Source of the DNA: Leptospiria bacterium
Lineage (GTDB): Bacteria > Spirochaetota > Leptospiria > Turneriellales > CBDBES01
DNA length: 64,000 nucleotides
Direction of reading: 5' to 3'
Assembly: GCA_965261485.1 (NCBI GenBank)
Contig: CBDHCY010000005.1
Span: 407,641-471,640 of the forward strand
Position 1 is the first letter of the stretch. The number at the start of each line of letters is the position of its first letter. The notes below the pieces were generated by a model, which ran no database searches, was not told the origin of the DNA, and saw nothing but the letters and a program-made list of their open reading frames with translations. Shown one piece after another: positions 5,807-59,782 of the stretch. A program made the position numbers and the translations under genes.

Positions 5807-5813
<7 letters not shown>
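5792..5813 (+). other. 5' arm of the 23S rRNA processing stem
   Basis: tataaaacataatatggtcaag is perfectly complementary (22 bp) to 8786-8807, as expected for an RNase III-type processing helix that brackets the mature ends. Confidence 0.75.
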
Positions 5814-8785
<2,972 letters not shown>

Positions 8786-8792
<7 letters not shown>

Positions 8793-8807
8793 ATATTATG
8801 TTTTATA
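8786..8807 (+). other. 3' arm of the 23S rRNA processing stem
   Basis: cttgaccatattatgttttata is the reverse complement of 5792-5813. Confidence 0.75.
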
Positions 8808-9071
8808 TTAAAGGTAGTGATTCTTTTCGCCAATAAAAGTTAGTGGTATCTTTGAATTAATTTATCATTTTTTTGAATTTTGAAGTGATAAGATAAAAAT
8901 ATTTTAAATTTTAGTTCGTGAATTAAATTATTTTTGATTTAAAAATAAAAAAATTTAAGTTTTAAATTGACTTAGTATGTGGTACAAATATAAAATCAAA
9001 AAAATTGACTTTGATGAATATATGAAATTATTTAAAAGGCAAAAAAAAGGGTTTATATAAAATTTAATTGT

Positions 9072-10679
9072 ATGCTTTATCCTAAAACTTATAACTATAT
9101 ATTTTTAATTCCTTACTTATTATTTTATTCATGTGCTGCTGACTTTTTTGATATGTTCTTTCAAAAAAAAGCTTATAATAATACATTAGATATTGTAGCA
9201 GGTAGTTATCATACCTGTATGCTTTTTCGTGGCAAGGTTCGCTGTTGGGGTGATCAAGATATCAATGGATATGGAATACCTATTGGTTTAAAGCGTCTTC
9301 CTAACTCATTAGCTGATAATTTAACTTTTATAAATAAAGATTCTATTGTTAAACAAATCACCGCTGGGAAGAGGCATACCTGTGTTCTTTTTGAAGATAG
9401 TACTGTCCGGTGTTGGGGTGATAATAGTGTTGGTCAACTTGGATTAGGAAATACAATTAATATTACAGAAACTTCAAGGAGTGAATCTGATATTATATTT
9501 CAAGGGGTAAATGTTTTAGTCAAACAAATTGATGCTGGAAGTGATCATACTTGTGCTTTGAGCACAAAACATCAAATTTTTTGTTGGGGTTCTGGCAGTA
9601 ATGGTAAGCTTGGAAATAATACAACATTCAATATTGGTGATATCTCACCCATGAATCCTATTTCAACTGTTGTAACAAAAGTACAAAATAATTTTCCTGA
9701 AAATCAAAATCCTGTAAAAATAGCAGCTGGTGCTAACCATACATGTATTTATTTTGAAAATAATGATATAACCTGTTGGGGATTAATTACGGAATTAGGT
9801 GCTAATGGAGAGAATGCCACACGTAGTATGGCTGGCATTAATTTAGAGGGAAGTGCTGTGAGTGCCCCAGAATCTTCCTTAGTAAATTTATCAATTACTA
9901 ATATTGTATCTGGTGGAGGCGTAACATGTATTAAAATAAAAACAAATCGAGTTGTTTGTTGGGGAGTTGGTGTTGCTGGGAAACTAGGCTATGGTTGTGG
10001 CAGTGAAAATATAACAACCCATCATGTGGGAAGTAGCAATGTTTCGACAACAATATTCCCATCAAATGATGATGCTTTTCGAGTGGCCTATGATAACCAG
10101 CAGCCCATTACTGAGCCATTAAAAATGGATACAAATGATACAAATTGCCGTATGGATGGTAGTATCATTTCATATCAAAATTATACAGATATTTCTCAAG
10201 TTGTTATTGGGCCTGGCTCTTCTTATTCTTGTGTGTTAAGATTAAATGGAACAGTGCACTGCTTTGGTGCAAACTTTGGAGTTCATAACTTAACTCCAAG
10301 CGGGAGTATTAATCTCACAGCTATAAAAACAGCTAGTTGTACAAGAACAGCAGGAATAGATTATCCAGGTGGTAGTCCACTTGGATATAATATTCCTTCG
10401 TTCGAAAATAAGCTTACAGACATGAATAGTGAAGAAGAAGTGGAAACTCCAATAATTTCAACAAGAAATGAGCCTATACCTGTTGGAGGAACGGCAATCA
10501 GAATTGGTGCAGGAGAATCTCATGTTTGTGCACTTTTAGAAAATGATCAAATTAAATGCTGGGGAACCAACTGTACTGGACAATTAGGTCATGGAAATAA
10601 TATTGGTGAGGCTACAGGAGGAGGCGTATTAGGTTTTAAAAAACTTAGCTCTTATGGAACATTTAGTTTTCCATTTTGA
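9072..10679 (+). CDS. RCC1-repeat (seven-bladed beta-propeller) lipoprotein
   Basis: 535 aa. There are seven repeats of the RCC1 signature (H[TS]C.....V.CWG.N..GQLG). The N-terminus LLFYSCAADFF resembles a spirochaetal lipobox. Confidence 0.85.
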   Translation: MLYPKTYNYIFLIPYLLFYSCAADFFDMFFQKKAYNNTLDIVAGSYHTCMLFRGKVRCWGDQDINGYGIPIGLKRLPNSLADNLTFINKDSIVKQITAGKRHTCVLFEDSTVRCWGDNSVGQLGLGNTINITETSRSESDIIFQGVNVLVKQIDAGSDHTCALSTKHQIFCWGSGSNGKLGNNTTFNIGDISPMNPISTVVTKVQNNFPENQNPVKIAAGANHTCIYFENNDITCWGLITELGANGENATRSMAGINLEGSAVSAPESSLVNLSITNIVSGGGVTCIKIKTNRVVCWGVGVAGKLGYGCGSENITTHHVGSSNVSTTIFPSNDDAFRVAYDNQQPITEPLKMDTNDTNCRMDGSIISYQNYTDISQVVIGPGSSYSCVLRLNGTVHCFGANFGVHNLTPSGSINLTAIKTASCTRTAGIDYPGGSPLGYNIPSFENKLTDMNSEEEVETPIISTRNEPIPVGGTAIRIGAGESHVCALLENDQIKCWGTNCTGQLGHGNNIGEATGGGVLGFKKLSSYGTFSFPF

Positions 10680-10747
10680 ATATTTTATATTTTTTTTGAA
10701 TTTAAAGAATGTGAGTTGTAAGTTAGAACCAAGTATTTTTAGTGTAT

Positions 10748-17576: not shown

Positions 17577-20500
17577 ATGTTATTGGAAGACTCTTTCCCT
17601 AAAACGATTGCTTCAATATTTTTAAAGTTTTTTTTTATTTACATAATATTTGTAGGAGGTCTTTTTTTAGCCCGGTATTATTTAAATGAAATTGAAATAT
17701 GGCCTTTTTTCTATTCTTGGTATGCAAAAGAGAGTGAAAAAAATACTAAGACATTTTTAAATGAACGACATCATTTAAATCAAAAAAAAAATTCCAAAGA
17801 TGTTCATAAAATTCTTTCTATAAGAAAATATTTAGAAAAAAAACCTAGATTTAATTTTGATATTCCAGAGTCTTCTTTTATTGAAAATTCTCTTGTCGAA
17901 GCATCAATTTACAAAGATAAAAATCTACCTAAAATTGATGAAGAATTTATAAAATCAGCTAAATATGATACCTCTGGAATTAGTGGAGGTCTTGATGGTA
18001 TCGAATTAAGAGTTTTTGGTAATTCTGGTGTTATTATGTCTTATGGTTTTTCTAACTATCTTACCAAAGAAGACTCACGAAATGATATTGTGTCGGCGAA
18101 TGCAATTAATATTAGAGAGGATTTTTTTTTAGAAGCGGGATTAAACTTAAACTTAAAAGGTAAGATTGGAAAAAGAGTTTTAATCGATGTTAACTATGAT
18201 CAAAATGAAAGGCTTCTAAATAATAAAATTCAACTTAAATATTTTGCCTTACATAAAAAAGAATTTGTTCGTGAAGTCACCGTTGGTAATGTCGGCTTTA
18301 ACTTCCCCAATGATGATTCAACGGAATTCAAAGGTTTTGAAAAAAAAGATAAAGAAACACTGGGAATTGAGGCAAAATTTAAAAAAGGGAAGTTAAGTTT
18401 TCACAGTGTTGCTACTTTGATAGGAGGGGAAACAGCAACAGAAATATTTACAGGTAATACTCATAATATAGAAACTATAATTCCTGAGTATACTTATAAA
18501 GCAAGAAAATATTTTCAGTTAGAGCCATTTATTTATTATGATAAAAAAAATATTTCGCCTATAATCACTAAGGCTTCCTATATAAGAAACAATTCAGATA
18601 GCCTTATTACTTTTACTTCAGTACCTTTAAATAAAAGTAATAAAAATTATCCAACTGCTGTTAATATTGATTCTGGTTCATTTGAAGTGTGGCTTGATGA
18701 TCAGGATGGAACAAATAATCGAATCTTAAATGCCCGAACAAAAAAAATTTTAGGTAATAATTTAGGTCACTATCATTTACTTCAAGAGTCTGATGATTAT
18801 CAAATAAATTATAAAAGTGGTAAACTTGAATTTATTAAATTTATTAGGAGTGATTCTCGTATCTATGTTCGTTACACACGGAATAGGAGTGATAAAGATA
18901 CGGCAGATCCGTCTGCTAGAACGGGTGTCAATGGCAAAATTGAAACTTTTATTTACTTTGGCTCTTCAATGAATGAAGATACAAATTTTGACGGCACTCA
19001 AAATATTACTATTATCAATGATGGTAAAGTAAATTATGATATCTATGAAGTAAGAAGCGTTTACAGCCTTGGTGCTTATAATTTACAAAAAAGTCAGCTT
19101 CAGCTCACCATTGTTGATAGAAATAGAAGTATTATTCCTGGTTTAAATGAGCAGTTAGGTGGTTATACCGTCGATTTTCAGCGAGGTCTTTTGAGCTTTT
19201 ATTTACGAGAACCTTTTAAAGCCCTTAAAAATCAAAATCAAGAATTTATATTGAATGATATGGAAGTAAAAGATATTTACTCTGAAATAAAAATTGATTC
19301 TTCAGAAATATCTCGATTGATGATTGAAGCGAGCTTAGTAGAAGAAATTCAAAATTATAAACTTCAGCATCCACAGATTATCCAAAATTCCGTACAAGTT
19401 ACAATTGATGGTATAAAAATTAAACCAACATTATATATCGTAGATTATTTATTGGGTTTTTTATCTTTCAGTGATAAAAGGAACCCTATAATTTCATCGG
19501 GTACAAGAATTGAAGTAACCTATCAATACTCACCTTTTGGACAAAAGACAAATGGCTTTATTTTAGGTTTAAGAAGTGAATATGAGATGAATCGCAATAT
19601 TAAGTTAGGAAATACACTTTTATATAATGCCCAACTAAAAAATAGTCAGGTACCAAAAATTGGTGAAGAGCCTGTAAGTCGCTTTATAATTGAAAATGAC
19701 CTAAAGGTAAACCTTGGGGAGAAAGAATTGACTAAATTTATAAATTATATTCCCGGTATTGATCTTGATCTTTTACCAGTGAGATATAATTTTTATGGGG
19801 AATATACTAAAAGTTTTTATAATCCAAATACAGTAAATATTGCCTTAGTTGATGATATGGAGTCATCTGAAGATAAAATAGAATTATCATTGAGTGACCG
19901 AGATTGGCAATTATCGAGTTTACCTCCTTCCTTAGGGCTTACTGAGTGTGATCGAGCTCCTTTACTTTACCGCTATTATCGTGATTTAAATAATCTTGAA
20001 TTGGGTCCTACTCGATTAAATACACCGATTCAAGCATCTCCTAATTATCGCCAACTTGCTGGCCCTTATAATGTTGCTGAAGGTCATTTAGATTTTAATC
20101 AGTTGAAACAAGCTGAAAGGCAAGTATCTTTGGTGATGGACTTTGATTTTTCTAGTGGTGGTAAGGTTGCAAGTATTGTTACTAGGCGTTTTTCTCCTGA
20201 AAGTAATGGGCAAAACCTTGCTCAGATAGAGTATATTGAATTTTCAGCTAAATTGATCGACCCCATTGCTCTGTCTGAAGGTGTTTCTATTCGTTTTGAT
20301 ATAGGTACTATTAATGAAGACTCCGATGCTGACTCTAAGTTAGATACAGAAGATGTGGGTTCAGATGGAATTAATAATGATTTGAATGGTGATGGTCTCC
20401 CAGATATTGGAACTTCTTTTTCTGGAGGTGAGCAGAATGGAAGAATTGATCAGGTTGTAGGAGGTTTTACGGAAGATAGAGGATACCATTTTAATGCACC

Positions 20501-23500
20501 TCGTATTTGTTCGGGGTTAAATACAAGAGTGGGTTCTGGCCCTGCTGTGTCTGGTAATCACAGAACAGATGGTAACGGAGTTTTGAATACAGAAGATTTA
20601 AATGGAGATGGTCGATTAGAAACGACTGAAAATGTGATCACATTTGATGAGTTAAACCGTAATTATATTAATTTTGACATTGCATCGGGGTTACACTCTT
20701 CTAATATAATTTTATCGGAAAATTGGCACTTAGTTAGAATGTATTTGAATCGAGAAGCTCTTAATGATACTCAAAAACAGCTACTACACCGTGTAAAAAG
20801 TATTCGTTTATATGTTGTTCCTAGTGGAGTGGGTTCAGCGAATGGAAAGGGACGTATTCTTATTGACAATATTAAATTAGGGCGATCTCTTTGGAGGCGT
20901 AAAAAACTACAAGTCAATAATGTTGAATCTGACTTAGAAGATACTAAAATATTGAATATCAGTACCATTGATAATCAAGACTCTAGGTCTGAATATGCAA
21001 ATGCTTCATTTATTGCTCAAGAAAGAAACGAATATGAAAAATTACATGGAATTCAAACAAATTTTGAACGAAGTCGTATGCGTGAGGCAGCTTTGAAGAT
21101 TAACTATAATTTTAATTCGAGTCTTTGCACTACAGGCGTATGTAAACACGCTTATGTTAGAAGAGTCTTTCTGAGATCACTTGATCTTAGTTCTTATAAT
21201 AAAATAAATATTTGGGTAAATTATCGTAAATTAAATACATCTGATGATTATTTCTTTTTTCGTTTTGGTTCTAGTGACAATAATTATGTGGAAGGCACTG
21301 AGAAGATGAATACTTTGGGATGGCATTTATTAAGTTTTGATATTCCTAAACAATCTGAAGGTGAGATTTGCCCAAAAATAAAACAATTTCATGGATGTCC
21401 CAATCTTAAGCGAGTGAATACAATGATTTTGGGAGTTCGTAATGAAAGCAGTACAGGAGGGAGTGAAGGTATAATTTGGGTCAATGATATTTTTGTGTCT
21501 GAATCAAATACTCAAAATGATGATTTTTATATGATAAAAAATGATATAAAAGTTATAAAACCATTTTATAAAACGAAAGGTGGCGTATCAATCTTTGATA
21601 ACTTCAAAGTCTCATATGATAAACGTTATCAAGGCAATAATTTTTTTACATTGAATCAAAATTTTAAGAATATTTCAATGGATGCGAATAACCTTAGTTT
21701 TACCTCTACATTACTCCCTTTTTTAGAGAGTGCTTATACTTTTTCTTATGTTACCTCTGAATCTTTTGACAATAAGCTTCAAGAACAAAAAGATTTTGAC
21801 GGCAAACTAACAAGGGTAACTCACAGCACACAATATGATTTTAAATTTGAGAATAAGTATTATCCCCGTGTTACAGTTAAATATGAATATCAAAATAAAA
21901 GTAGAGATAAGCAAAATCTTTTAAATAATGTTGTAGATACAGAAATCTTAAATCAATCTGTAGAGGAATATACATATGTACCTTATATTTCATTTTATCA
22001 AAAATTTTTAGATTTTGGGGGTCATAAACTTACTTTAGAGGCAAAAACAGGCATTCAATATTTTAAAAAAGAAGAAAATTTAATTTTGAGTGATTCTTTT
22101 GTAATACCAAAATCCACTCAAAATAAAAAATCAAAAGAACAAAAAGATGAAATGGACTCACATTTGATTTATCAATGGGGTGATTTTAGGTTGCAGACAT
22201 CTTATTTTTTTCGTCAAGTGCTTTTGGTAAATCAAAATTTTACAGATAATCAAATATCAAGTTTAATTAATGGTAATTTTTATTTTCCTTTTTATATAAC
22301 AGCTTCTGATTTTCGTTATGTTCAGAGGCTTAGTAAATATAAATTAGATTTAGAATATCGTAATTTTTGGATATTTTCACCCAAGTTAGAGTATTTATTT
22401 AATTATTTAGAAAATTCTTTTAGAGACAATTCAAGTTCAATAATATTTTCAGGCCTTTCTTTTCAAAGATATAAACAACCGAATAGTTATGCTCGAACAA
22501 ACTTTAGTCTCAATTTTGATCTCAAAAAAATATCTAAAAAACTTAGCTTCTTTAAAAAGATTTCAACTAGTTTTTTTCGAGAGGTCTCCGTAAATGAAAA
22601 CTTTGTTCCTTTCAGTGCAAAGACGGGGTTATTTGAAGATAAATATGGTTTATCAAGTCGTTTTCAAACTTTGTTTGTGAGAGTATATGATCTTTTTTCT
22701 TATCCATTTTGGCAACATTTTACCTCTAAAAATCGATCTCACAATAATTTTTCTGAGGGGAGAGCATATATACAAATGTTAAATTTTAGTCCGATTAGCC
22801 CTTCGATAGAATTTGAAGATGTTTTTTCGCAATATAGTCAAATAATTTTTTTGAAGGAACATATGAATATGGTTATAAATTGGAGTATATTTGATGGATT
22901 CCTTATTTTGAATGAAGCTCATTTAAGTCAGACAATCTCTCGCAGAGGGAATATTGGTGCTTTACCTCATCAAATTGTAAATTTGGGTGTAAGTGTTCGT
23001 CCAACAATTGATCTTATGAAAATTTTAAACTTTTGGTTTTGGTCTAAACCGTTAATAAACAAAAAAAATAATGGAGAATATTATCAAGAAAAAAGCTCTA
23101 ATTTAGATATTAACTTTCGTTATGAAAATCATTTGAAAGTAACCAGTAATATATCTCGCAAGCACTATATACCCGAGTTCAATCTTTCTTTCAATTGGCT
23201 GAATGAAAGAAGTGCTCTTCAATCATTACGTTTTCAGACAAATTTAGATTTTTCAAATGAGAATGAGAGTGATTTTTTTATTACAAATGGAAATCAAAAT
23301 GATATTTCAATATTTGAAAACATACAAAAAAGTGGTAACCGCTTTAAAAAAGAAAATATTAGTTTTGGTTTATCTATTTTATATGTTTTTGGTATTCCTT
23401 TATTGAGGGAGTGGCTGCAAGAACTAACTGGAATAAAATTAAAAAAAAATCCAAAATATAGAATTGAGTTTATATTTAATCTTAATCGCTTTAATTATGA

Positions 23501-23699
23501 TATTTATACTAATTTAAAAGAGTTCCCTTCTGATTTTTATATTCTTGCACAAAATTTAAGTATGAATATCCATACTAATATTATTGGAAAAATGCATTTT
23601 AAATCAGCACTTGAAATTCAGAGAGATCAAGAAACTAATCAAGAGCGTCAAAAAATTCTTGCTTTTGAAATTGGGCTTTCGATTCAAATTATTTTTTAA
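17577..23699 (+). CDS. Giant (2,040 aa) predicted outer-membrane protein, SprA-like
   Basis: Uninterrupted 6.1-kb ORF with an N-terminal hydrophobic anchor or signal. N-terminal motifs (KGKIGKRVLIDVNYDQN...REVTVGNVGFNFP, LGIEAKFKKGKLSF) resemble my recollection of SprA/Sov. It has Asp-rich Ca-binding-like inserts and a C-terminal beta-signal-like end (FEIGLSIQIIF). Confidence 0.55.
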   Translation: MLLEDSFPKTIASIFLKFFFIYIIFVGGLFLARYYLNEIEIWPFFYSWYAKESEKNTKTFLNERHHLNQKKNSKDVHKILSIRKYLEKKPRFNFDIPESSFIENSLVEASIYKDKNLPKIDEEFIKSAKYDTSGISGGLDGIELRVFGNSGVIMSYGFSNYLTKEDSRNDIVSANAINIREDFFLEAGLNLNLKGKIGKRVLIDVNYDQNERLLNNKIQLKYFALHKKEFVREVTVGNVGFNFPNDDSTEFKGFEKKDKETLGIEAKFKKGKLSFHSVATLIGGETATEIFTGNTHNIETIIPEYTYKARKYFQLEPFIYYDKKNISPIITKASYIRNNSDSLITFTSVPLNKSNKNYPTAVNIDSGSFEVWLDDQDGTNNRILNARTKKILGNNLGHYHLLQESDDYQINYKSGKLEFIKFIRSDSRIYVRYTRNRSDKDTADPSARTGVNGKIETFIYFGSSMNEDTNFDGTQNITIINDGKVNYDIYEVRSVYSLGAYNLQKSQLQLTIVDRNRSIIPGLNEQLGGYTVDFQRGLLSFYLREPFKALKNQNQEFILNDMEVKDIYSEIKIDSSEISRLMIEASLVEEIQNYKLQHPQIIQNSVQVTIDGIKIKPTLYIVDYLLGFLSFSDKRNPIISSGTRIEVTYQYSPFGQKTNGFILGLRSEYEMNRNIKLGNTLLYNAQLKNSQVPKIGEEPVSRFIIENDLKVNLGEKELTKFINYIPGIDLDLLPVRYNFYGEYTKSFYNPNTVNIALVDDMESSEDKIELSLSDRDWQLSSLPPSLGLTECDRAPLLYRYYRDLNNLELGPTRLNTPIQASPNYRQLAGPYNVAEGHLDFNQLKQAERQVSLVMDFDFSSGGKVASIVTRRFSPESNGQNLAQIEYIEFSAKLIDPIALSEGVSIRFDIGTINEDSDADSKLDTEDVGSDGINNDLNGDGLPDIGTSFSGGEQNGRIDQVVGGFTEDRGYHFNAPRICSGLNTRVGSGPAVSGNHRTDGNGVLNTEDLNGDGRLETTENVITFDELNRNYINFDIASGLHSSNIILSENWHLVRMYLNREALNDTQKQLLHRVKSIRLYVVPSGVGSANGKGRILIDNIKLGRSLWRRKKLQVNNVESDLEDTKILNISTIDNQDSRSEYANASFIAQERNEYEKLHGIQTNFERSRMREAALKINYNFNSSLCTTGVCKHAYVRRVFLRSLDLSSYNKINIWVNYRKLNTSDDYFFFRFGSSDNNYVEGTEKMNTLGWHLLSFDIPKQSEGEICPKIKQFHGCPNLKRVNTMILGVRNESSTGGSEGIIWVNDIFVSESNTQNDDFYMIKNDIKVIKPFYKTKGGVSIFDNFKVSYDKRYQGNNFFTLNQNFKNISMDANNLSFTSTLLPFLESAYTFSYVTSESFDNKLQEQKDFDGKLTRVTHSTQYDFKFENKYYPRVTVKYEYQNKSRDKQNLLNNVVDTEILNQSVEEYTYVPYISFYQKFLDFGGHKLTLEAKTGIQYFKKEENLILSDSFVIPKSTQNKKSKEQKDEMDSHLIYQWGDFRLQTSYFFRQVLLVNQNFTDNQISSLINGNFYFPFYITASDFRYVQRLSKYKLDLEYRNFWIFSPKLEYLFNYLENSFRDNSSSIIFSGLSFQRYKQPNSYARTNFSLNFDLKKISKKLSFFKKISTSFFREVSVNENFVPFSAKTGLFEDKYGLSSRFQTLFVRVYDLFSYPFWQHFTSKNRSHNNFSEGRAYIQMLNFSPISPSIEFEDVFSQYSQIIFLKEHMNMVINWSIFDGFLILNEAHLSQTISRRGNIGALPHQIVNLGVSVRPTIDLMKILNFWFWSKPLINKKNNGEYYQEKSSNLDINFRYENHLKVTSNISRKHYIPEFNLSFNWLNERSALQSLRFQTNLDFSNENESDFFITNGNQNDISIFENIQKSGNRFKKENISFGLSILYVFGIPLLREWLQELTGIKLKKNPKYRIEFIFNLNRFNYDIYTNLKEFPSDFYILAQNLSMNIHTNIIGKMHFKSALEIQRDQETNQERQKILAFEIGLSIQIIF

Positions 23700-33598: not shown

Positions 33599-36121
33599 TT
33601 AGATGTTTTCACTTGTACTAAAAATTTCCGCACTTTGGATGATTGTACTGGCATGTGCAGCTTCAAAATCGACTCTTTTCATCTTATTTATGTTTGAAGT
33701 AACAGTAGTATTTAAAGCATAGATTTTAAAATAGTAGTTATGCACACCAGTGCCACTTGGAGGGCAGGGGCCTCCCCAACCAGTATCTGGTCTTTCTCCA
33801 CGACCTGACCAACTGTTCTGACCAACTGTCCAGTTCATGGGAAAACTTGGTTCTTCAGACGTTGTCGTGAGTGTCGATGCCGGAGTTGGAACAGTCAATT
33901 TAGCCAATTCAGTGGGTAAATTGACCGTTCCTATTTTATTATACCAAGCATTTAAATGTACCCAAGGACTACTACTGTGGGTGTCTTCAACAATCAAAAC
34001 AAGTGCTTTGGCATTTGCAGGGATATTTGACCAAGTGAGTTTAGGGAAATCATTATTACCACTGCATTGAGAAGCCGGCATTCCTATACCGTTGACGCGA
34101 GGTAGCCTCTCTTTAAAATTATCAGGAATCATCCCTCCTGGTGTGAAACCATCATCACTGAGACTTGAAGTTAATGAGAATGATATCATAGGATTACCGC
34201 TATTACTATTTTCACTTGTACTAAAAATTTCCGCACTTTGGATGATTGTACTGGCATGTGCAGCTTCAAAATCGACTCTTTTCATCTTATTTATGTTTGA
34301 AGTAACAGTAGTATTTAAAGCATAGATTTTAAAATAGTAGTTATGCACACCAGTGCCACTTGGAGGGCAGGGGCCTCCCCAACCAGTATCTGGTCTTTCT
34401 CCACGACCTGACCAACTGTTCTGACCAACTGTCCAGTTCATGGGAAAACTTGGTTCTTCAGACGTTGTCGTGAGTGTCGATGCCGGAGTTGGAACAGTCA
34501 ATTTAGCCAATTCAGTGGGTAAATTGACCGTTCCTATTTTATTATACCAAGCATTTAAATGTACCCAAGGACTACTACTGTGGGTGTCTTCAACAATCAA
34601 AACAAGTGCTTTGGCATTTGCAGGGATATTTGACCAAGTGAGTTTAGGGAAATCATTATTACCACTGCATTGAGAAGCCGGCATTCCTATACCGTTGACG
34701 CGAGGTAGCCTCTCTTTAAAATTATCAGGAATCATCCCTCCTGGTGTGAAACCATCATCACTGAGACTTGAAGTTAATGAGAATGATATCATAGGATTAC
34801 CGCTATTACTATTCTCACTTGTACCAAAAATTTCTGCATTTTGGATGATTTTACTGGCATGTGCAGCTTCAAAATCGACTCTTTTCATCTTATTTATGTT
34901 TGAAGTAACAGTAGTATTTAAAGCGTAGATTTTAAAATAGTAGTTATGCACACCAGTGCCACTTGGAGGGCAGGGGCCTCCCCAACCAGTATCTGGTCTT
35001 TCTCCACGACCTGACCAACTGTTCTGACCAACTGTCCAGTTCATGGGAAAACTCGGTTCTTCGGACGTTGTCGTGAGTGTCGATGCCGGAGTTGGAACAG
35101 TCAATTTAGCCAATTCAGTGGGTAAATTGACCGTTCCTATTTTATTATACCAAGCATTTAAATGTACCCAAGGACTACTACTGTGGGTGTCTTCAACAAT
35201 CAAAACAAGTGCTTCGGCATTTGCAGGGATATTTGACCAAGTGAGTTTAGGGAAATCATTATTACCACTGCATTGAGAAGCCGGCATTCCTATACCGTTG
35301 ACGCGAGGTAGCCTCTCTTTAAAATTATCAGGAATCATCCCTCCTGGTGTGAAACCATCATCACTGAGACTTGAAGTTAATGAGAATGATATCATAGGAT
35401 TACCGCTATTACTATTCCCACTTTTATTCTCATTAGTAACGGTGCCAAAAATTGTTGCACTGGCTATGATTTGAGACTCATTACTAGACTCAAAGACTGA
35501 CCCTAGTGTGTTGTTTATAGGAGTAGTAATTTTTGCATTCATGGCATATATTTTGAAATAGTAGCGATAGGTAGTCTCATTCGGTGGGCATGGCCCACCC
35601 CAACCATCGTTGGGTCTATCTCCAGTACCTGACCAACTATTATCACCAACTGTCCAACCATTAGAAAAGGTCGGTTCGACGGCTGTTATATTAAATGTGT
35701 TGGGTCCAGATAATTTATCTATCCCATTAGGTAATTGTTCATTCATTGTTCGGTTGTAGTAAGCATTTAGGTGCACCCATTGAGGTTGAGCATCTATATT
35801 CTCCACGATTAAAACAAGGGCTTGAGTCTCTTCAGGAATATTTGACCAAGTGAGTTTAGGAAAGTTATTACCGCCAGAGCACTGGGCACCTGTATCACGA
35901 GGCAATTTTTCTTTAAAATTATTGGGGATTACATCTCCTGGATTAAAGCCATCATCACTGCTACTGGAAGTTATAAAAAATCTTGTTGAACCACCATTTT
36001 TTTTTGAAATTGTTTCTTGACCATTTAAGCGATCACTCATATTTTGCTCAAAAGGACAACGCATTGTTAGAAAGAAGATACAAAATATAAAGTACAAGAA
36101 TTTATAAAATACATTGAGCAT
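33599..36121 (-). CDS. Secreted/lipoprotein with four tandem PEBP (YbhB/YbcL-like) domains
   Basis: 840 aa with an N-terminal signal containing Cys (FFLTMRC). The motif C(S)G.N.FPKLTWSNIP...ALVLIVE......WVHLNA.YN ... GWGGPCPP.....YYFKIYA.N occurs four times and corresponds to the YbhB/YbcL PEBP pattern. Confidence 0.75.
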   Translation of the reverse strand: MLNVFYKFLYFIFCIFFLTMRCPFEQNMSDRLNGQETISKKNGGSTRFFITSSSSDDGFNPGDVIPNNFKEKLPRDTGAQCSGGNNFPKLTWSNIPEETQALVLIVENIDAQPQWVHLNAYYNRTMNEQLPNGIDKLSGPNTFNITAVEPTFSNGWTVGDNSWSGTGDRPNDGWGGPCPPNETTYRYYFKIYAMNAKITTPINNTLGSVFESSNESQIIASATIFGTVTNENKSGNSNSGNPMISFSLTSSLSDDGFTPGGMIPDNFKERLPRVNGIGMPASQCSGNNDFPKLTWSNIPANAEALVLIVEDTHSSSPWVHLNAWYNKIGTVNLPTELAKLTVPTPASTLTTTSEEPSFPMNWTVGQNSWSGRGERPDTGWGGPCPPSGTGVHNYYFKIYALNTTVTSNINKMKRVDFEAAHASKIIQNAEIFGTSENSNSGNPMISFSLTSSLSDDGFTPGGMIPDNFKERLPRVNGIGMPASQCSGNNDFPKLTWSNIPANAKALVLIVEDTHSSSPWVHLNAWYNKIGTVNLPTELAKLTVPTPASTLTTTSEEPSFPMNWTVGQNSWSGRGERPDTGWGGPCPPSGTGVHNYYFKIYALNTTVTSNINKMKRVDFEAAHASTIIQSAEIFSTSENSNSGNPMISFSLTSSLSDDGFTPGGMIPDNFKERLPRVNGIGMPASQCSGNNDFPKLTWSNIPANAKALVLIVEDTHSSSPWVHLNAWYNKIGTVNLPTELAKLTVPTPASTLTTTSEEPSFPMNWTVGQNSWSGRGERPDTGWGGPCPPSGTGVHNYYFKIYALNTTVTSNINKMKRVDFEAAHASTIIQSAEIFSTSENI
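33605..35425. repeat. 603-bp in-frame tandem repeat, three copies
   Basis: The units at about 33608-34210 and 34211-34813 are identical as far as I can read. The unit at 34814-35416 differs at about ten positions. Antisense ORFs in the track recur at exactly 603-bp spacing (33837/34440/35043 and 34092/34695). Confidence 0.95.
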
Positions 36122-45697: not shown

Positions 45698-46723
45698 ATG
45701 AAAGTTATTTTTCTTGATCGTGATGGTACTTTAAATGATGACTCAGGATACTTAAGTGATCCTAATAAACTATTTTTAAAAAAAGGAGTCATTGAAGGTT
45801 TAAATTTACTTAAATTTGCCAATTTTCAATTTATTATTTTAACCAATCAATCGGGTATTTCAAGAGGTCTTATTTCAGAAGAAGAGCTAGAGAGGATACA
45901 TGCGAGATTAAGGAAAATATTAGCTAAAGATGCTCTTTTTATAAAAAAAATTTACTATTGCCCAGATAAAGATGACAAATCACTCTGTCGAAAACCAAAT
46001 TCACAGATGATTTATGAGGCTTTGAAAGATTTTTCTATTGATCTTGATAATTCTTATATTATTGGTGATCGATATCGAGATATTTTAACAGGAAGTAGCC
46101 TTAAAATTCCAGGAATTTTAATAAAAGGGAATACTATCAATAATGGAGGTCAACAACCTAAAAACTTAATTAAGGAGGCGGATAGTTTTTTAGAAGCTGC
46201 TCAATATGTTCTTCAATATGAATCTGAAAAAATCTGGAAATCTAAAATTTATTATAAAGCAGAAAAGACTTTTCTACAAAAAATTAATAAACTGAAACAA
46301 AGTAAATCAAGACTCGTATTTACAAATGGATGTTTTGATTTGTGGCATAGTGGTCATTTACAATATTTAGCACAAGCAGCTCAGCTTGGGAGTGATTTAA
46401 TTGTCGGACTTAATTCTGATGTTAGTGTTCAGAAAATTAAGGGCTCTCACCGGCCCATTTTATCAGAAAAAGAAAGAGCGATTAAGTTAGCACACCTAGC
46501 TTTTATTAGTATGGTTATTATTTTTAACGAAGATACGCCCATTGAGCTTATACAACAGGTTAGGCCAGATATTCATGTGAAAGGAGGTGACTACAAGGCA
46601 GAGAGCCTCCCTGAATATACGGTCTTAAATCAAATAAAAGCTCAGATTATCATTCTTCCTTTCAAAGAAGGACATTCTACAAGTTCTATTATTAATCGTA
46701 TTTATGAAGAAAAATCGACTTAA
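45698..46723 (+). CDS. Fusion protein: D,D-heptose 1,7-bisphosphate phosphatase (GmhB) + heptose 1-phosphate adenylyltransferase (RfaE domain II/HldC)
   Basis: The N-terminal half has HAD motifs (FLDRDGTLN, LTNQSGISRG, CPDK...LCRKPN, IGDRYRD). The C-terminal half has cytidylyltransferase motifs (VFTNGCFDLWHSGH, GLNSD.SV...KG..RP, HVKGGDY). Confidence 0.8.
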   Translation: MKVIFLDRDGTLNDDSGYLSDPNKLFLKKGVIEGLNLLKFANFQFIILTNQSGISRGLISEEELERIHARLRKILAKDALFIKKIYYCPDKDDKSLCRKPNSQMIYEALKDFSIDLDNSYIIGDRYRDILTGSSLKIPGILIKGNTINNGGQQPKNLIKEADSFLEAAQYVLQYESEKIWKSKIYYKAEKTFLQKINKLKQSKSRLVFTNGCFDLWHSGHLQYLAQAAQLGSDLIVGLNSDVSVQKIKGSHRPILSEKERAIKLAHLAFISMVIIFNEDTPIELIQQVRPDIHVKGGDYKAESLPEYTVLNQIKAQIIILPFKEGHSTSSIINRIYEEKST

Positions 46724-47577
46724 TTATCTTGATTATCTTCGATCAATTTTTTATGATAATTACTTTGATTATTTTTGTATCCTGTCTCTTTTTGGTCAAA
46801 ACTCATATCAATTCCATCAAAATAGAAATCGCGAATGGTACTTAAAACTTTTAGACTGTCTAGAAATACCACTATAGATCCTTTCAAGGAGGCCGTGGGT
46901 TTTGATCTAATTACGAGCTTTTTTAAAACCATACTTTTTTCTTGAGGAAAAAACAATGTTTTTTGTAGAAAATATGAAGGTATCTTTACTATGAGAGGTC
47001 TCCAGCCAATATAGTTAAGTGAGCCAAAATGACCAATAAATGTTTCACCTCTCCAGTCTTCCAACCAAACCTCTAGTGAAACATCGTTGCCTCTACCTAA
47101 AGCCCATATACTTAGGGAGTCAATGCGTCCAGGCAACTCAATACCAGGCACAGTCATATATTTTGGCTGATTTTTTGAGTCAAGTTGCCCTGTAGGTCTT
47201 CTAATCTTTTTATCTTTTGGTGGAGTAAGTACCACTGAATTATGACCTTGGTAAACAAAATTAAAACGAATTCCCATTGACTTCTTATTTTTACTATTAT
47301 TGCCTAGGTTTATGGGGCGTCCATCAACAAGTTTTGATTCGGCAATGCCCGCAGGAGGACCAGGAATAGATTCAATATCCCAAGCTACTTTTTCCCAACC
47401 TTCAACTATGATGGAACGTAGTTGCTTCGCTCCTACATCTTCACTTTGAAAGGTATTGATTTGACTATCCAGAGATTTTAGTATAAAAAAAGCTCCTATC
47501 ACAAGAAAAAATAAATTCTTGAAGAGGGACAATTTTATTAGTTTATTGAAATGATTCATTATTTTAGTCTTTTTCAT
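46720..47577 (-). CDS. flaA: Flagellar filament outer layer (sheath) protein FlaA
   Basis: Matches the FlaA family pattern (SLSIWALGRGNDVSLEVWLEDWRGETFIGHFGSLNYIGWRPLIVKIP) and has a signal peptide. ATG 47577 is preceded by AGGAGA and is preferred over TTG 47598. Confidence 0.8.
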   Translation of the reverse strand: MKKTKIMNHFNKLIKLSLFKNLFFLVIGAFFILKSLDSQINTFQSEDVGAKQLRSIIVEGWEKVAWDIESIPGPPAGIAESKLVDGRPINLGNNSKNKKSMGIRFNFVYQGHNSVVLTPPKDKKIRRPTGQLDSKNQPKYMTVPGIELPGRIDSLSIWALGRGNDVSLEVWLEDWRGETFIGHFGSLNYIGWRPLIVKIPSYFLQKTLFFPQEKSMVLKKLVIRSKPTASLKGSIVVFLDSLKVLSTIRDFYFDGIDMSFDQKETGYKNNQSNYHKKLIEDNQDN

Positions 47578-47591
47578 CTTATTTTTCTCTC

Positions 47592-48338
47592 CTACCAAAT
47601 ATCCTTGATCTGACTACCTGGATAATCTAATCCAGCTCTATCTATCTTAATTGCGAGCTGATCAAGGTAAAAATAAAAATCTCCACCAACTTCAAGCTTG
47701 TCTGACGTTATATAGAGGGATACAAACTTTAAATTTCTATCAAAAATAGAAAAACGAGCACTTTGCCTAACCCAACCTGGGATTGCTACAGTGAGCTTCC
47801 TCCAACCAAAATAATCAAGTCTACCAACTTTAATTTTATAAATTTTACCTCGATAGTCTTTTAATTTGATACTGAGAGTGTGTCTAAAATTTCTACCTAA
47901 CACCCAAACAGATATTTGTCTTCCTATTCCTTTGATAACATATTGGTGAGGTGGTCTAACTTCAATTCGATCAAAGCCCCTGTCCTTAATAAAACCTCTT
48001 ACACCCAACACATGATTCTCTCCAGGTATGAAAAGATTTTTTTCTTCATCAGTTAGGTTTTGAGGGTCATAAACATCTTCAATTTGACCTCGTTGAACTC
48101 TTTTTTGTGCTTTTGTAACACCCAATGGAGATGTCGCAAAAGCTCTCCAGTCTTCAGCGTTCTCGAAATTATTTAAAGTCTTATCAATCAGATCTCCACT
48201 TCTCTTTGTTTTTGGTTGTTGACTCGAATTTACAACAGGTTGATCTTTTTGTTGAGAGATCACCTGACCAGAAGCCAAAATAATCAAAAAGAGTACCGTA
48301 ACCTTACTTAAGAAAAAATAATTTTTATCAAAACACAT
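47592..48338 (-). CDS. flaA: Flagellar filament outer layer (sheath) protein FlaA, second paralogue
   Basis: Matches the FlaA pattern (VLGVRGFIKDRGFDRIEVRPP...QISVWVLGRNFRHTLSIKLKDYRGKIYKIKVGRLDYFGWRKLTVAIP) and has a signal peptide. The two flaA genes are tandem, as in Leptospira. Confidence 0.8.
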   Translation of the reverse strand: MCFDKNYFFLSKVTVLFLIILASGQVISQQKDQPVVNSSQQPKTKRSGDLIDKTLNNFENAEDWRAFATSPLGVTKAQKRVQRGQIEDVYDPQNLTDEEKNLFIPGENHVLGVRGFIKDRGFDRIEVRPPHQYVIKGIGRQISVWVLGRNFRHTLSIKLKDYRGKIYKIKVGRLDYFGWRKLTVAIPGWVRQSARFSIFDRNLKFVSLYITSDKLEVGGDFYFYLDQLAIKIDRAGLDYPGSQIKDIW

Positions 48339-49414: not shown

Positions 49415-49897
49415 ACCTTGTTGTAGTGAGTTCTATTAAAATATTTATGATTATTCTTGAAAAATAGGTTATTGATAAAAGCATAACGACACGCTATATT
49501 ACTATTGAGTTATTGAGGTCTCTGGCAAAGTATTTTTTTATTTATTTGTTTCCTTGTCTTGTAAAAAACAAGATATCTTTTTGTGAGCATCTAGTTTAGT
49601 TTCCACTTGTGTAGAAAACGTGAAAACTGAACACTTTACTGTGTTTAATTTAGAAGGTAAAACTATGACCGAAAGGAATAAATATAATAAATAATAGAAA
49701 GAGAAGTTGATTTTGGATGTAATTTTAGGTTAAAATAGTACGGGAGAAATATCTATTTTTGGAGTTAAACTAATATTTACTAAATTGAGTTATTGATAGT
49801 CAGGGGATTAAATTAATCTGTCATCTTAGATTTTTAAAAATATTAGAAATTTTAAAAAATAAGATGACCTGTTGTGGGGTGTATTTATTCAGTATCA

Positions 49898-51040
49898 ATG
49901 TCTGAATCTAAATTAAAGCCTGGTTTAGCAGGAGTCCCTGTTGCCATTTCTAAGATTAGTGATATTAATAGTCAAGATGGAATTTTGACATACCGCGGAT
50001 ATTCTATAGAGACTTTATGTGCAAAAAGTAATTTTGCTGAATCTGCTTATCTTCTTGTTTATGGTAATCTACCAACTCAAAAAGAATATGAAACCTTTGT
50101 ATATGAGCTGAGGAGTCATCGACGTCTTAAATATAAAATTATTGATCTAATTAAACATTTGCCTGAAAATGGGCATCCAATGGATGCCACACAGGCCATT
50201 GTGGCTGTCCTTGGTATGTTTTATCCTTTTGACAATAGAGATTTTACTGATCCTGTCATCCAGCGGATTGCAATTACTCGTCTTATTGCTAAGATGCCTA
50301 CTTTGGTTGCCGCTTATCACCGTATGCGTTATGGTGATTTAGCAATTTCTCCTAGAGATGATTTAGGTCAGTCAGCTAACTTTCTTTATATGTTAAATGA
50401 ATCAGTGGCTCCTGAAGATAAGGTACGTATTTTAGACCAGACCTTGATACTTCATATGGAGCATACTATGAATGCTTCAACTTTTAGTGCACGAGTGACT
50501 GGCTCTACCCTTTGTGATCCTTTTACTGTTATTTCTTCTGCTGTTGGAACTTTAACAGGGCCTTTACATGGTGGAGCTAATGAAAGAGTCTTAACTATGT
50601 TAGAGGAAATTGGTGATAAAAAGAATGTAGAGAAATACTTAATTGCAAAATTAGCCCGAAAAGAAAAAATAATGGGGTTTGGTCATCGTGAATATAAAGT
50701 GAAAGATCCGCGAGCTACAATACTTCAAAAATTGGGCGAAAAACTTTTTAGTAAATATGGTGTTAATCCTCTCTATGAGGTTGCCCTTGAGGTCGAAAAA
50801 GTTATGAAAAAATTAGGAGAAGAAAAGGGAATTTATCCGAATGTTGATTTTTATTCAGGTTTAGTATATGATAAACTTGATATCAAAGTCGATATTTTTA
50901 CTCCTCTTTTTGCTATAGCTAGAGTAGTTGGTTGGCTAGCCCACTGGGTAGAACAAATTTCTGACAATAAAATTTATCGTCCTACAGCTTTTTATGAAGG
51001 CAATGTATCTCAAAAATATATTCCAATGAACCAGAGATAG
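49898..51040 (+). CDS. gltA: Citrate synthase
   Basis: Motifs GLAGVPVA.S.IS.I....G.L.YRGY, GPLHGGANE, GFGHREYK and NVDFYS. ATG 49898 (MSESKLKPGL) is preferred over GTG 49874. Confidence 0.9.
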   Translation: MSESKLKPGLAGVPVAISKISDINSQDGILTYRGYSIETLCAKSNFAESAYLLVYGNLPTQKEYETFVYELRSHRRLKYKIIDLIKHLPENGHPMDATQAIVAVLGMFYPFDNRDFTDPVIQRIAITRLIAKMPTLVAAYHRMRYGDLAISPRDDLGQSANFLYMLNESVAPEDKVRILDQTLILHMEHTMNASTFSARVTGSTLCDPFTVISSAVGTLTGPLHGGANERVLTMLEEIGDKKNVEKYLIAKLARKEKIMGFGHREYKVKDPRATILQKLGEKLFSKYGVNPLYEVALEVEKVMKKLGEEKGIYPNVDFYSGLVYDKLDIKVDIFTPLFAIARVVGWLAHWVEQISDNKIYRPTAFYEGNVSQKYIPMNQR

Positions 51041-56091: not shown

Positions 56092-57534
56092 ATGCTAAAT
56101 AAGAGAAATAATACTTTTTCTGAAAAGGAAGATAATTTTGTACATATTATCATCACTCCTCAGCATAAAAATATGATAGTCTTTTGTACATTAAAAGGGG
56201 TTTCCGGGTTAAATATTAGTGAGAGTCAAATTCAACTTGAATTAAATGAAAAAAATATTAAATATGGGATTGACCAAAGTGCAATATCTAAACTAGTTAA
56301 AGCTTATAAAAGTGCCAGCAAAAAATTTATAAATTTAAGTGGGATAGTTGCAAAAGGCCTTTCTGTAACTTCGAGTAAAAATGGGTATATTGAAATTTTT
56401 ATTGCTCCAACTGAAAAAGTCAAGATTCAGAAAGATGGTTCTGCAGACTTTCGAAATATTAATATATTCAAGCAAGTTAAAAAGGGAGATATTCTTGCCA
56501 AAAAACATCCTCCGGTGCCAGGTAAAAATGGGATTGATATTTTTAATAAAGTTGTATTCGCAGAAATTTCTTCGGAAGGAAGCATTGAATATGGAAAAAA
56601 TATTCAGTTTAACTTAGAAACTCAAGAATATATTGCTTTAGAAGATGGCTTTTTTGAAGAGAGAGAAAATTGGATTGATGTTAAGTCGGTTTTACAAATA
56701 AAATCTAATGTTGGCTTAGAAACAGGCAATATTGATTATGACGGGAAAGTTCATATTTTTGGTAATATTGAAAGAGTGGCCTCTGTAAAGGTAAAAGGTG
56801 ATATTATTGTTGATGGAATTATTGAATCTGGAGCAGTGAGTTCAGGCAGTTCAATTTTTTCTAAATTAGGAATTAATACTAAGAGAGAGCATGAGGTGGT
56901 TGCTTTGAAAAATATTCGAACGAATTATGTTGAAAATTCATGTATTATGGCTCATCAAGATATTCTAGTACAAAATTCAATTTTAGGGAGTAAAGTTATT
57001 TCATTGAAAAATATTCTCATGTCTTCCGCAATATCTAGCATTGCTGGTAGTCAAATTTTTGCCTATGGTAATATTGAGGTTGGTGTAATTGGTAATTCAT
57101 CAGGATCTAACGTGCAGCTTACTCTTGGTAAACACATGCTTTATGCAGAAAAGTATAAGATAGTCAAGAATGAGCTCCTGGCAATTCAAAAAGAATTTTA
57201 TAAAAAGCTTGAAAAGGTTAAGGAATTTAAAATACAAATAAAACGACCACAGAGTAGACTGACTAAAGGGCAAATTATAAATATGAAAAAACAATTTAAT
57301 GACTATAAAATTATTGCAAATAAAAGAGATGATTATCAAAAACGAGAGAAAGTCTATCGAGAGGGTATGTATAACCATCAGCCAGTGAAACTTATTGTTA
57401 AATCTAAGATATATCCTGGTGTGGAGATTATTTATAATAATAATGTAATCAATATTGACTCTGAGTACACAAATGTAGTATTTACTTTTGATCCAAAAAC
57501 AGGCGGCTATCATATTAGTCCTATTCAAAAATAA
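56092..57534 (+). CDS. FapA (DUF342) family protein
   Basis: 480 aa. Beta-helix repeats with GN I/V motifs (GNIDYDGKVHIFGNIERVASVKVKGDIIVDGII) are followed by a C-terminal coiled coil, directly upstream of the flagellin genes. Confidence 0.7.
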   Translation: MLNKRNNTFSEKEDNFVHIIITPQHKNMIVFCTLKGVSGLNISESQIQLELNEKNIKYGIDQSAISKLVKAYKSASKKFINLSGIVAKGLSVTSSKNGYIEIFIAPTEKVKIQKDGSADFRNINIFKQVKKGDILAKKHPPVPGKNGIDIFNKVVFAEISSEGSIEYGKNIQFNLETQEYIALEDGFFEERENWIDVKSVLQIKSNVGLETGNIDYDGKVHIFGNIERVASVKVKGDIIVDGIIESGAVSSGSSIFSKLGINTKREHEVVALKNIRTNYVENSCIMAHQDILVQNSILGSKVISLKNILMSSAISSIAGSQIFAYGNIEVGVIGNSSGSNVQLTLGKHMLYAEKYKIVKNELLAIQKEFYKKLEKVKEFKIQIKRPQSRLTKGQIINMKKQFNDYKIIANKRDDYQKREKVYREGMYNHQPVKLIVKSKIYPGVEIIYNNNVINIDSEYTNVVFTFDPKTGGYHISPIQK

Positions 57535-58933: not shown

Positions 58934-59782
58934 ATGAAAATTAACAATAACCTTAGTGCGATGTTTGCACATCGACAACTTAAAATTGGTTCTACGAAAA
59001 TGGAGAAGTCAATTGAAAGGCTGTCGACTGGGATGCGAATTAACAAAGCCGGGGATGATGCTACTAATCTTGCTGTATCTGAAAAGATGCGTGCGCAGAT
59101 TAATGGTTTAAAGCAAGCCGAACAAAATGCATTGAACGGATTATCTTTCATTCAGGTAGCTGAAAGTGGGATGACCCAAGTAAATAACATGTTACAAAGA
59201 GTAAGACAACTTTCTGTACAAGCGGCGAATGGGATATACTCTGACACAGATCGATTACAGATTCAAGTGGAAGTTTCTCAGCTCATCGATGAGATTGATC
59301 GAATTTCTACAACAGTCGAGTTTAATCGAAGAAAAGTTCTTACGGGAGACTATGCTAGAGGTTCAGATAGAGCTTCAATGTTCTTTCATGTAGGTCCAAA
59401 TCAAAATCAGAGAATTAAAGCCTATATTGCTACCATGAGTGCTCGTGCCCTAGGCTTATATGAGGCAAATGAAAAAAAGAAGGTTAGCACCGTAGGGGAT
59501 GCCAATGATATGATCGGCACTATTGATGTAGGTTTAGACCGTCTAAACCGAGAGAGAGCCGATTTAGGGGCATACTATAATCGTATTGAGTCTACAACTC
59601 AGGCTCTCGGCAGTGCCTACGAAAATATGGTTTCTGCGGAAAGTCGAGTTCGCGACGCGGATATGGCCGAGGAGTTAATTGAATTTACCAAGAATCAGGT
59701 TGTCTTACGGAGTGGTACAGCGATGCTAGCTCAGGCAAATGCTTTGTCGAGAATAGTGTTTAAACTTATAGACAACCTATAA
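58934..59782 (+). CDS. flaB: Flagellar filament core protein FlaB (flagellin), second paralogue
   Basis: N-terminus MKINNNLSAMFAHRQL. It shares the conserved N- and C-terminal flagellin blocks with the first copy. An AAGGAGAG RBS is present. Confidence 0.95.
   Translation: MKINNNLSAMFAHRQLKIGSTKMEKSIERLSTGMRINKAGDDATNLAVSEKMRAQINGLKQAEQNALNGLSFIQVAESGMTQVNNMLQRVRQLSVQAANGIYSDTDRLQIQVEVSQLIDEIDRISTTVEFNRRKVLTGDYARGSDRASMFFHVGPNQNQRIKAYIATMSARALGLYEANEKKKVSTVGDANDMIGTIDVGLDRLNRERADLGAYYNRIESTTQALGSAYENMVSAESRVRDADMAEELIEFTKNQVVLRSGTAMLAQANALSRIVFKLIDNL

Follow-up and report, generated by a model that had tools for sequence, protein, structure and literature searches.

A minus-strand gene within a 64,000-nucleotide stretch of the genome of a Leptospiria bacterium (contig CBDHCY010000005.1 of assembly GCA_965261485.1, positions 407,641 to 471,640; hereafter the window) encodes a protein with four tandem PEBP domains, the last three of which are specified by a 603-bp direct repeat in frame. 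Two of the three repeat units are identical base for base, and the number of units differs between this locus and its nearest orthologue. We interpret the gene product as an exported four-PEBP protein, with a C-terminal repeat array that is homogenised by recombination and a number of domains that turns over between lineages. We assign this interpretation a probability of approximately 0.8.

The array was defined by position-by-position comparison. Positions 33606–34210 match positions 34209–34813 exactly, an unbroken run of 605 matching bases when the sequence is shifted by 603. There are zero differences over 603 bp between the copies at 33606–34208 and 34209–34811, and an identity of this length is not attributable to chance. 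The copy at 34812–35414 differs from either of the others at nine nucleotides, resulting in four amino-acid changes; five of these nine differences lie within the first 40 nucleotides of the unit on the plus strand, which correspond to its C-terminal end. A repeat search likewise returned three copies with spacings of 603 and 603 as the sole long direct repeat across the 64-kb window, together with a fourth weak copy further upstream (70–76% over short stretches), and detected no long inverted repeats in the window. Tandem Repeats Finder (TRF) was run with a longest period of 500 and hence missed the array, reporting only a 13-nucleotide motif that occurs once per unit.

These comparisons bear out a first-pass annotation of the window, made from the sequence alone, which had described a 603-bp in-frame tandem repeat in three blocks with the first two identical. 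The block coordinates given there are those of the same array set in codon register (Table 1). The variant copy that it reported exists, though the "roughly ten" differences come to exactly nine; the four substitutions it listed (E/K, K/T, N/S, and G/S) occur just as stated, and its example strings were located at 33615 and 34218 in the identical copies and at 34821 in the variant copy. The antisense open reading frames (ORFs) that it had seen at 603-bp spacing were also recovered (77 residues each, at 33837/34440/35043 and 34092/34695(/35298)), their periodicity being a trivial by-product of the repeat. Promoter- and terminator-like matches in the units are identical weak consensus matches occurring three times, and do not suggest internal transcription signals.

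Table 1. Coordinates of the multi-PEBP gene and its parts in the window.
Feature	Coordinates	Strand	Residues	Basis and remarks
ORF with four tandem PEBP (YbhB/YbcL-type) domains	33599..36121	-	840 aa	ORF listing, Pfam, NCBIfam
Probable signal/anchor segment MLNVFYKFLYFIFCIFFLTMRC	36056..36121	-		Hydrophobic stretch ending in Cys; read from sequence
Domain 1, older diverged PEBP, outside the 603-bp array	35429..36004 (about)	-	40-231	hmmsearch envelope
Repeat unit 1	34814..35416	-	236-436	9 nucleotides / 4 amino acids apart from units 2 and 3
Repeat unit 2	34211..34813	-	437-637	Every base identical to unit 3
Repeat unit 3	33608..34210	-	638-838	Identical to unit 2; followed by Asn-Ile-stop (33599-33607)

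Profile searches identified the repeated domain. Four stretches of the 840-residue protein match Pfam PF01161 (271.5 bits; cutoff 24) and four match NCBIfam TIGR00481, the YbhB/YbcL subfamily (213.3 bits; cutoff 57.75). The cutoffs for the Escherichia coli equivalogs are not reached, either for YbcL (NF007330; 130.3 versus 277) or for YbhB (NF007609; 82.7 versus 226). Judged by these scores, the window protein belongs to the superfamily of YbcL and YbhB and is an orthologue of neither. The public gene call for the same locus (P0001, on a 2.13-Mb contig) is 100% identical; it contains 821 residues, its start (MRCPF...) being placed 19 codons further in. The domain limits in Table 1 were obtained by hmmsearch with a profile built from the units. 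Given that these limits match the 201-codon units, each unit encodes one whole domain plus a short linker. The first-pass annotation had correctly proposed a complete PEBP-like domain and a linker per unit; however, the linker is rich in Ser and Asn (TSENSNSGNPMISFSLTSS) and not, as stated there, in Ser, Thr, and Pro, and the annotation, while right about the array, had overlooked the fourth, diverged PEBP domain in the gene. This first domain shares 54% amino-acid and 62% nucleotide identity with the units.

Structural comparisons point in the same direction. One unit aligns with periplasmic YbcL of E. coli (1fux) across the whole domain, and sequence matches in the PDB also include CT736 (3n08). 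An AlphaFold2 model of unit 2, built from an alignment of 12 family domains, reached a mean per-residue confidence (pLDDT) of 83.4 and a predicted TM-score (pTM) of 0.84, with low-confidence parts around residues 31–50 and 111–120. The top 15 PDB matches of this model in Foldseek were all PEBPs; the best of them (3n08, 1fux, 4beg, and 1fjj) had a probability of 1.0, E values of 1e-11 to 1e-9, and target-normalised TM-scores of 0.67–0.82. Each unit is accordingly predicted to adopt the PEBP fold. The family alignment contains 28 invariant columns, among them H85, G144-W145, P148, and the Cys pair C49/C149. Classical PEBPs carry the pocket motifs DPDxP...H and GxHRY. The window domains have kept the first Asp (D76), the invariant H85 of a W-x-H, and a G-W-x-G-P-C-P-P stretch, and the second pocket His (of H-N-Y) is present in most of them.

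Several features suggest that the protein is located outside the cytoplasm. The N-terminal segment of the 840-residue ORF is repeated identically in the orthologue at locus L001, which is described below. Relatives of the protein have LTTSC (P0004), LITAC (P0006), or IYSC (P0003 and P0005) at the equivalent place. Read from the sequence against the lipobox pattern [LVI][ASTVI][GAS]C, LITAC fits the pattern, LTTSC has Leu only at position -4, and IYSC is near-canonical. Moreover, the invariant C49/C149 occur in every domain, at the positions of both Cys in periplasmic YbcL. Taken together, the hydrophobic N-terminus, the lipoboxes in relatives, and the invariant Cys pair of the domains predict an exported protein, which is probably membrane- or lipid-anchored.

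We compared the gene with its nearest orthologue. The sole close relative in the protein database beside P0001 is P0002, a protein of 614 residues with 87% identity that is encoded at locus L001. This locus is syntenic with the window (gcvT, clpP, ispH, TPR, GFO, and prmC) and 96.2% identical at the nucleotide level over 9.9 kb, with flanks that are 96–99% identical. It contains two units of 594 bp, compared to three of 603 bp in the window. Domain 1 is 97.2% identical in nucleotide sequence between the two loci. The units are 98.5–100% identical within the window and 97.0% identical within L001, versus 90.5–91.8% between the window and L001. In an alignment of all five units (three from the window, two from L001), the window units as a group are set apart from the L001 units as a group by 48 columns, including a 9-nucleotide indel; not one column favours orthology by position. 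Since the units group by genome and not by position, they either evolve in concert or arose by independent duplication in each lineage. This is the opposite of three normally diverged units in orthologues, the outcome that, according to the first-pass annotation, would have spoken against its proposal. Searches of the GTDB species genomes and the JGI metagenomes with the protein returned only remote single-domain relatives (27–31% identity) and no third genome of the lineage.

The distribution of differences among the units provides some indication of their history. Seven columns show the pattern 'abbaa', in which units 2 and 3 share a derived state and unit 1 retains the L001 state. Units 2 and 3 became identical in the most recent event, which is much younger than the split from L001: there are no differences over 603 bp compared to 1–4% nucleotide divergence in the flanking genes. 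In both genomes, moreover, the differences between units are concentrated towards the 3' end of the unit, i.e., the five of nine in the last 40 nucleotides of the window units and 13 of 18 in columns 502–562 of the L001 units. This clustering suggests partial conversion tracts.

To look for multi-PEBP proteins beyond this lineage, 1.84 billion representatives were searched exhaustively without a profile. The search yielded 2656 PEBP matches at E ≤ 1e-3 and 11 at E ≤ 1e-30, with a handful of multi-domain proteins among the latter. Among the multi-domain relatives, six PEBP domains were counted in P0003, four in each of P0004 and P0050, and three in each of P0005, P0006, P0007, and P0172. As in the window protein, a signal/lipobox precedes three to six tandem PEBP domains in all of these proteins and in P0002, and they share the same loops, the Cys pair, and the tendency to gain or lose a unit. 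With the exception of P0002, they have 34–52% overall identity to the query and occur in other genomic contexts. Their domains, unlike the window units, have mostly diverged to 60–82% identity, and P0004 and P0006 bear an extra C-terminal repeat region behind the PEBP domains.

Differences in domain number are also evident within this wider family. The loci that encode P0005 and P0050 (L007 and L008, respectively) are syntenic; they lie on two contigs from one sample, ERZ25068043, and their flanks are 97–100% identical. L007 encodes three domains and L008 four, three of which are 99–100% identical between the two proteins. The first 60 nucleotides of the extra unit in L008 are 100% identical to the following unit, and thereafter the unit is 93–100% identical to the preceding one. 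The extra unit is thus a chimera of its neighbours, the signature of unequal crossing-over. A one-domain difference likewise separates P0004 (four) from P0006 (three), and domains 1 and 2 of P0172 are 96% identical. Based on these three cases, whole-domain gain and loss by homologous recombination is recurrent in the multi-PEBP family. The variable domain number proposed by the first-pass annotation was therefore observed between lineages, both at the window locus (three units versus two in L001) and in the L007/L008 pair (three domains versus four).

Two further observations were made on these relatives. L007 contains CotH and LTD-domain genes between a TonB_C gene and recA (8778–10698) that are absent from L008, a second indel between two otherwise near-identical loci of one sample. 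In addition, the 968-kb contig ctg12572_14x_l from the same sample, which carries L004 and L008, encodes three multi-PEBP proteins: P0003 with six domains, P0050 with four, and P0006 with three plus the C-terminal repeat region. The family has expanded into paralogues in this relative, compared to the single gene seen in the window.

We propose that homologous recombination between units, through unequal crossing-over and/or gene conversion, would keep the three C-terminal domains near-identical. The latest event may have been a whole-unit duplication or a conversion that reached the end of the homology, either of which would render units 2 and 3 identical. The same homogenising recombination would also shift the domain number between lineages, giving three units here and two in L001, while the units would meanwhile gather amino-acid changes rapidly in two loops. 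A simple unequal crossover of units 1 and 2 was considered as the origin of unit 3 and rejected; it predicts a hybrid middle unit, and unit 2 is the same as unit 3 to the last base.

It is also possible, though we consider it less likely than not, that there is no ongoing homogenisation. A single ancestral unit after domain 1 would then have undergone one duplication in L001 and two in the window lineage, the second of them very recently. Such a history predicts grouping by genome, including the shared 9-nucleotide indel, and the ancestral states of unit 1 at seven sites, with units 2 and 3 derived, form the stepwise series that it would leave. However, it demands that both lineages duplicated the unit in parallel and at identical boundaries, whereas the clustering of differences at the 3' end in both genomes resembles partial conversion tracts and a chimeric unit is directly seen in L008. 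The variability in domain number holds whether conversion or independent duplication produced the units.

The array could instead be an artefact of assembly, in which case the true number of units would differ (e.g., two) and the identity of units 2 and 3 would stem from an assembler expanding or collapsing the repeat. Base-for-base identity of two units is the expected product of such an error, and the nearest relative has just two units. Nevertheless, the usual error of assemblers on perfect tandem repeats is to collapse rather than to expand them. The 2.13-Mb contig implies that long reads were used, and such reads greatly exceed the 1.8-kb array in length. The reading frame is intact, the unit boundaries are exact, and the seven derived states common to units 2 and 3 but absent from unit 1 indicate at least two real unit types. 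One-unit differences furthermore recur in independent assemblies of relatives. We hence regard an artefact as highly improbable.

Rates of nonsynonymous (dN) and synonymous (dS) change between the window and L001 were estimated by the Nei-Gojobori method. Seven flanking genes gave dS values of 0.03–0.11, dN values of 0.002–0.022, and dN/dS ratios of 0.04–0.21. The corresponding values were 0.037, 0.026, and 0.70 for domain 1, and 0.10–0.16, 0.075–0.095, and 0.50–0.94 for the units compared between genomes. Changes are concentrated in residues 34–47 and 92–132, which make up 55 of the 201 residues of a unit and contain 36 of the 48 fixed columns (binomial p about 1e-11), although this value is tempered by loop limits that were picked after viewing the data and by the indel, which supplies nine of the 48 columns. 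These fast-changing regions are the two family-specific loops with low pLDDT. The pattern is compatible with loops that are exposed and subject to relaxed or diversifying selection, and it is a weakness of the argument that a dN/dS below 1 in the units does not separate relaxed constraint from diversifying selection.

Another candidate reading is that of a contingency-type locus. Unit number would in that case change at high frequency in the population, by RecA-dependent recombination or slippage, so that a surface antigen would vary in size under pressure from immunity or predators. The 1.2 kb of perfect direct repeat, the fast amino-acid change in the loops, and the copy-number differences between very close genomes at two family loci (one pair originating from the same sample, ERZ25068043) would all agree with this proposal. 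Yet two or three events over 1–4% nucleotide divergence also suit ordinary, rare unequal recombination, and the dN/dS ratios are below 1. The present data, moreover, are comparisons between genomes. On balance, a contingency-type locus seems unlikely.

Several points weigh against the interpretation of the gene as encoding an exported protein with a recombining array. Grouping of the units by genome is equally expected from independent duplications in both lineages, and identity of units 2 and 3 to the last base needs whole-unit conversion, boundary duplication, or a longer history. The collections searched hold only two genomes of the lineage, so that a single comparison genome is available for the locus; the L001 contig is labelled as having 2x coverage, and the copy number in the window is as given by the assembly, not from reads. 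With respect to export, the lipobox of the window protein is non-canonical (T-M-R-C, within FFLTMRC), having Met at position -2 and Arg at position -1. With respect to the domain, the pocket motifs are incomplete: DPDxP has lost its second Asp and its Pro (the sequence being E-D-T-H-S-S-S-P) and HRY has become H-N-Y. Finally, we know of no multi-PEBP protein that has been studied or that has a known function.

The window units share their domain family and fold with YbcL and YbhB of E. coli (1fux and 1fjj, respectively), CT736 of Chlamydia (3n08), and Rv2140c of Mycobacterium tuberculosis (4beg). Both YbcL and each window domain contain two Cys, in ...C-x-G-x-N... and ...G-x-C-P-P... motifs, and the window protein is predicted to reside outside the cytoplasm, as does periplasmic YbcL (PMC4810123). 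In contrast, YbcL, YbhB, CT736, and Rv2140c are single-domain proteins of about 160 residues, whereas the window protein has four tandem domains behind a hydrophobic N-terminus, and its domains carry two extra loops (about residues 34–47 and 92–132) compared to YbcL/YbhB-type proteins. Prokaryotic homologues of YbhB are mostly stand-alone, with infrequent fusions and an unsettled biochemical role (PMC8793217). Released from the periplasm, YbcL of E. coli suppresses the migration of neutrophils, by a mechanism not yet known (PMC4810123). A literature search on multi-domain or spirochaete PEBPs found nothing relevant.

The alpha C and Rib proteins of group B streptococci are tandem-repeat surface proteins with a variable number of units. 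They resemble the window array in that long, in-frame, near-identical DNA units each encode one folded domain and are homogenised within the gene, and in that unit number differs between close strains or genomes. Two properties of variable-number tandem repeats were accordingly found in the window array, namely near-identical in-frame units (0 and 9 differences) and a number that differs between close genomes. There is no sequence or fold relation between alpha C or Rib and the PEBP unit, however, and the window array comprises only three units. The host is, moreover, an uncultured spirochaete, and a role in immune escape or variation within the population would be conjectural for the window protein.

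The remainder of the window provides information on the host. Two adjacent, slightly overlapping genes (46720–47598 and 47592–48338, minus strand) encode FlaA, the flagellar-sheath (filament outer-layer) protein characteristic of spirochaetes; genes for a flagellin (58934–59782) and FapA (56092–57534) are also present. The best named relatives of GcvT come from metagenome-assembled genomes labelled 'Spirochaetia bacterium' (47%) and from Leptospira (40%). The FlaA genes and the GcvT relatives identify the host as an uncultured low-GC spirochaete. A complete 23S rRNA gene stands alone at 5807–8794 (plus strand). No 16S or 5S rRNA gene was detected at the Rfam gathering score in the 64-kb window, and no tRNA gene was found anywhere in it. 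The lone 23S gene indicates that the rRNA genes are unlinked, as they also are in Leptospira.

The genes downstream of the PEBP gene, on its own strand, encode ArgJ, DUF58, and MoxR; those upstream, gcvT, clpP, and ispH, are divergent. All of these are housekeeping or housekeeping-like genes, and no link of MoxR or DUF58 to the PEBP gene was established. More distant relatives, in which GcvT is 64–67% identical, have no PEBP gene in the gcvT neighbourhood, which makes its position lineage-specific and leaves synteny uninformative about function. With 40% GC, the PEBP gene exceeds the window background of 31% (rRNA and PEBP gene excluded), and the same excess of gene over genome, roughly 7–10 points, occurs in L001 and L004. 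The excess lies mainly at codon positions 1 and 2. GC content at the third codon position (GC3) is 0.30, about 1.9 standard deviations above the ORF mean (mean 0.215, standard deviation 0.046, maximum 0.35 in flagellin). Recent horizontal transfer is unsupported as a cause of the high GC, given that GC3 is within the ORF range and relatives share the excess; GC-biased gene conversion in the repeats is conceivable.

Other genes in the window are recorded here for completeness. An RCC1-repeat (beta-propeller) protein is encoded at 9072–10679 (plus strand), and RCC1 repeats are fused to a PEBP domain in the database protein P0014. A 2040-residue ORF at 17577–23699 (plus strand), between fumarase and a CHASE2-adenylate/guanylate cyclase gene, has no Pfam match at E ≤ 1e-5. 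Two citrate-synthase paralogues lie within 50 kb of one another (319–1419 and 49874–51040, plus strand).

It is well known that domains of exported proteins can duplicate in frame and evolve in concert. What is unusual here is the domain involved, and that tandem-PEBP, lipoprotein-like proteins make up a small family, as yet undescribed, in uncultured bacteria related to spirochaetes. The locus represents a clean, datable case of intragenic concerted evolution and unequal crossing-over, and one at which assemblies deserve checking. For the function of the protein, the best-supported reading, and a modest one, is that a PEBP module for binding or inhibition would be displayed multivalently outside the cytoplasm, its loops and its valency being variable. 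The module would bind a small ligand or a protein and be present there in several copies, the number of domains would set valency or reach, and the fast-changing loops would face the environment. It is a distinctly long shot that the multi-PEBP lipoproteins form an undescribed class of spirochaete surface proteins, in which domain number would often be switched by recombination between perfect repeats to tune valency or reach against an external target (a protease, a kinase-like host factor, or a lipid head-group) and hypervariable loops would provide the interaction or antigenic face.

Bacterial PEBPs are widespread, almost always single-domain, and without an agreed biochemical function. That the domain has been multiplied three- to six-fold in putatively exported proteins, with its loops remodelled and its copies gained and lost, suggests that it acts outside the cell in a setting where valency matters. 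The multi-PEBP family may therefore offer a handle on the function of PEBPs.

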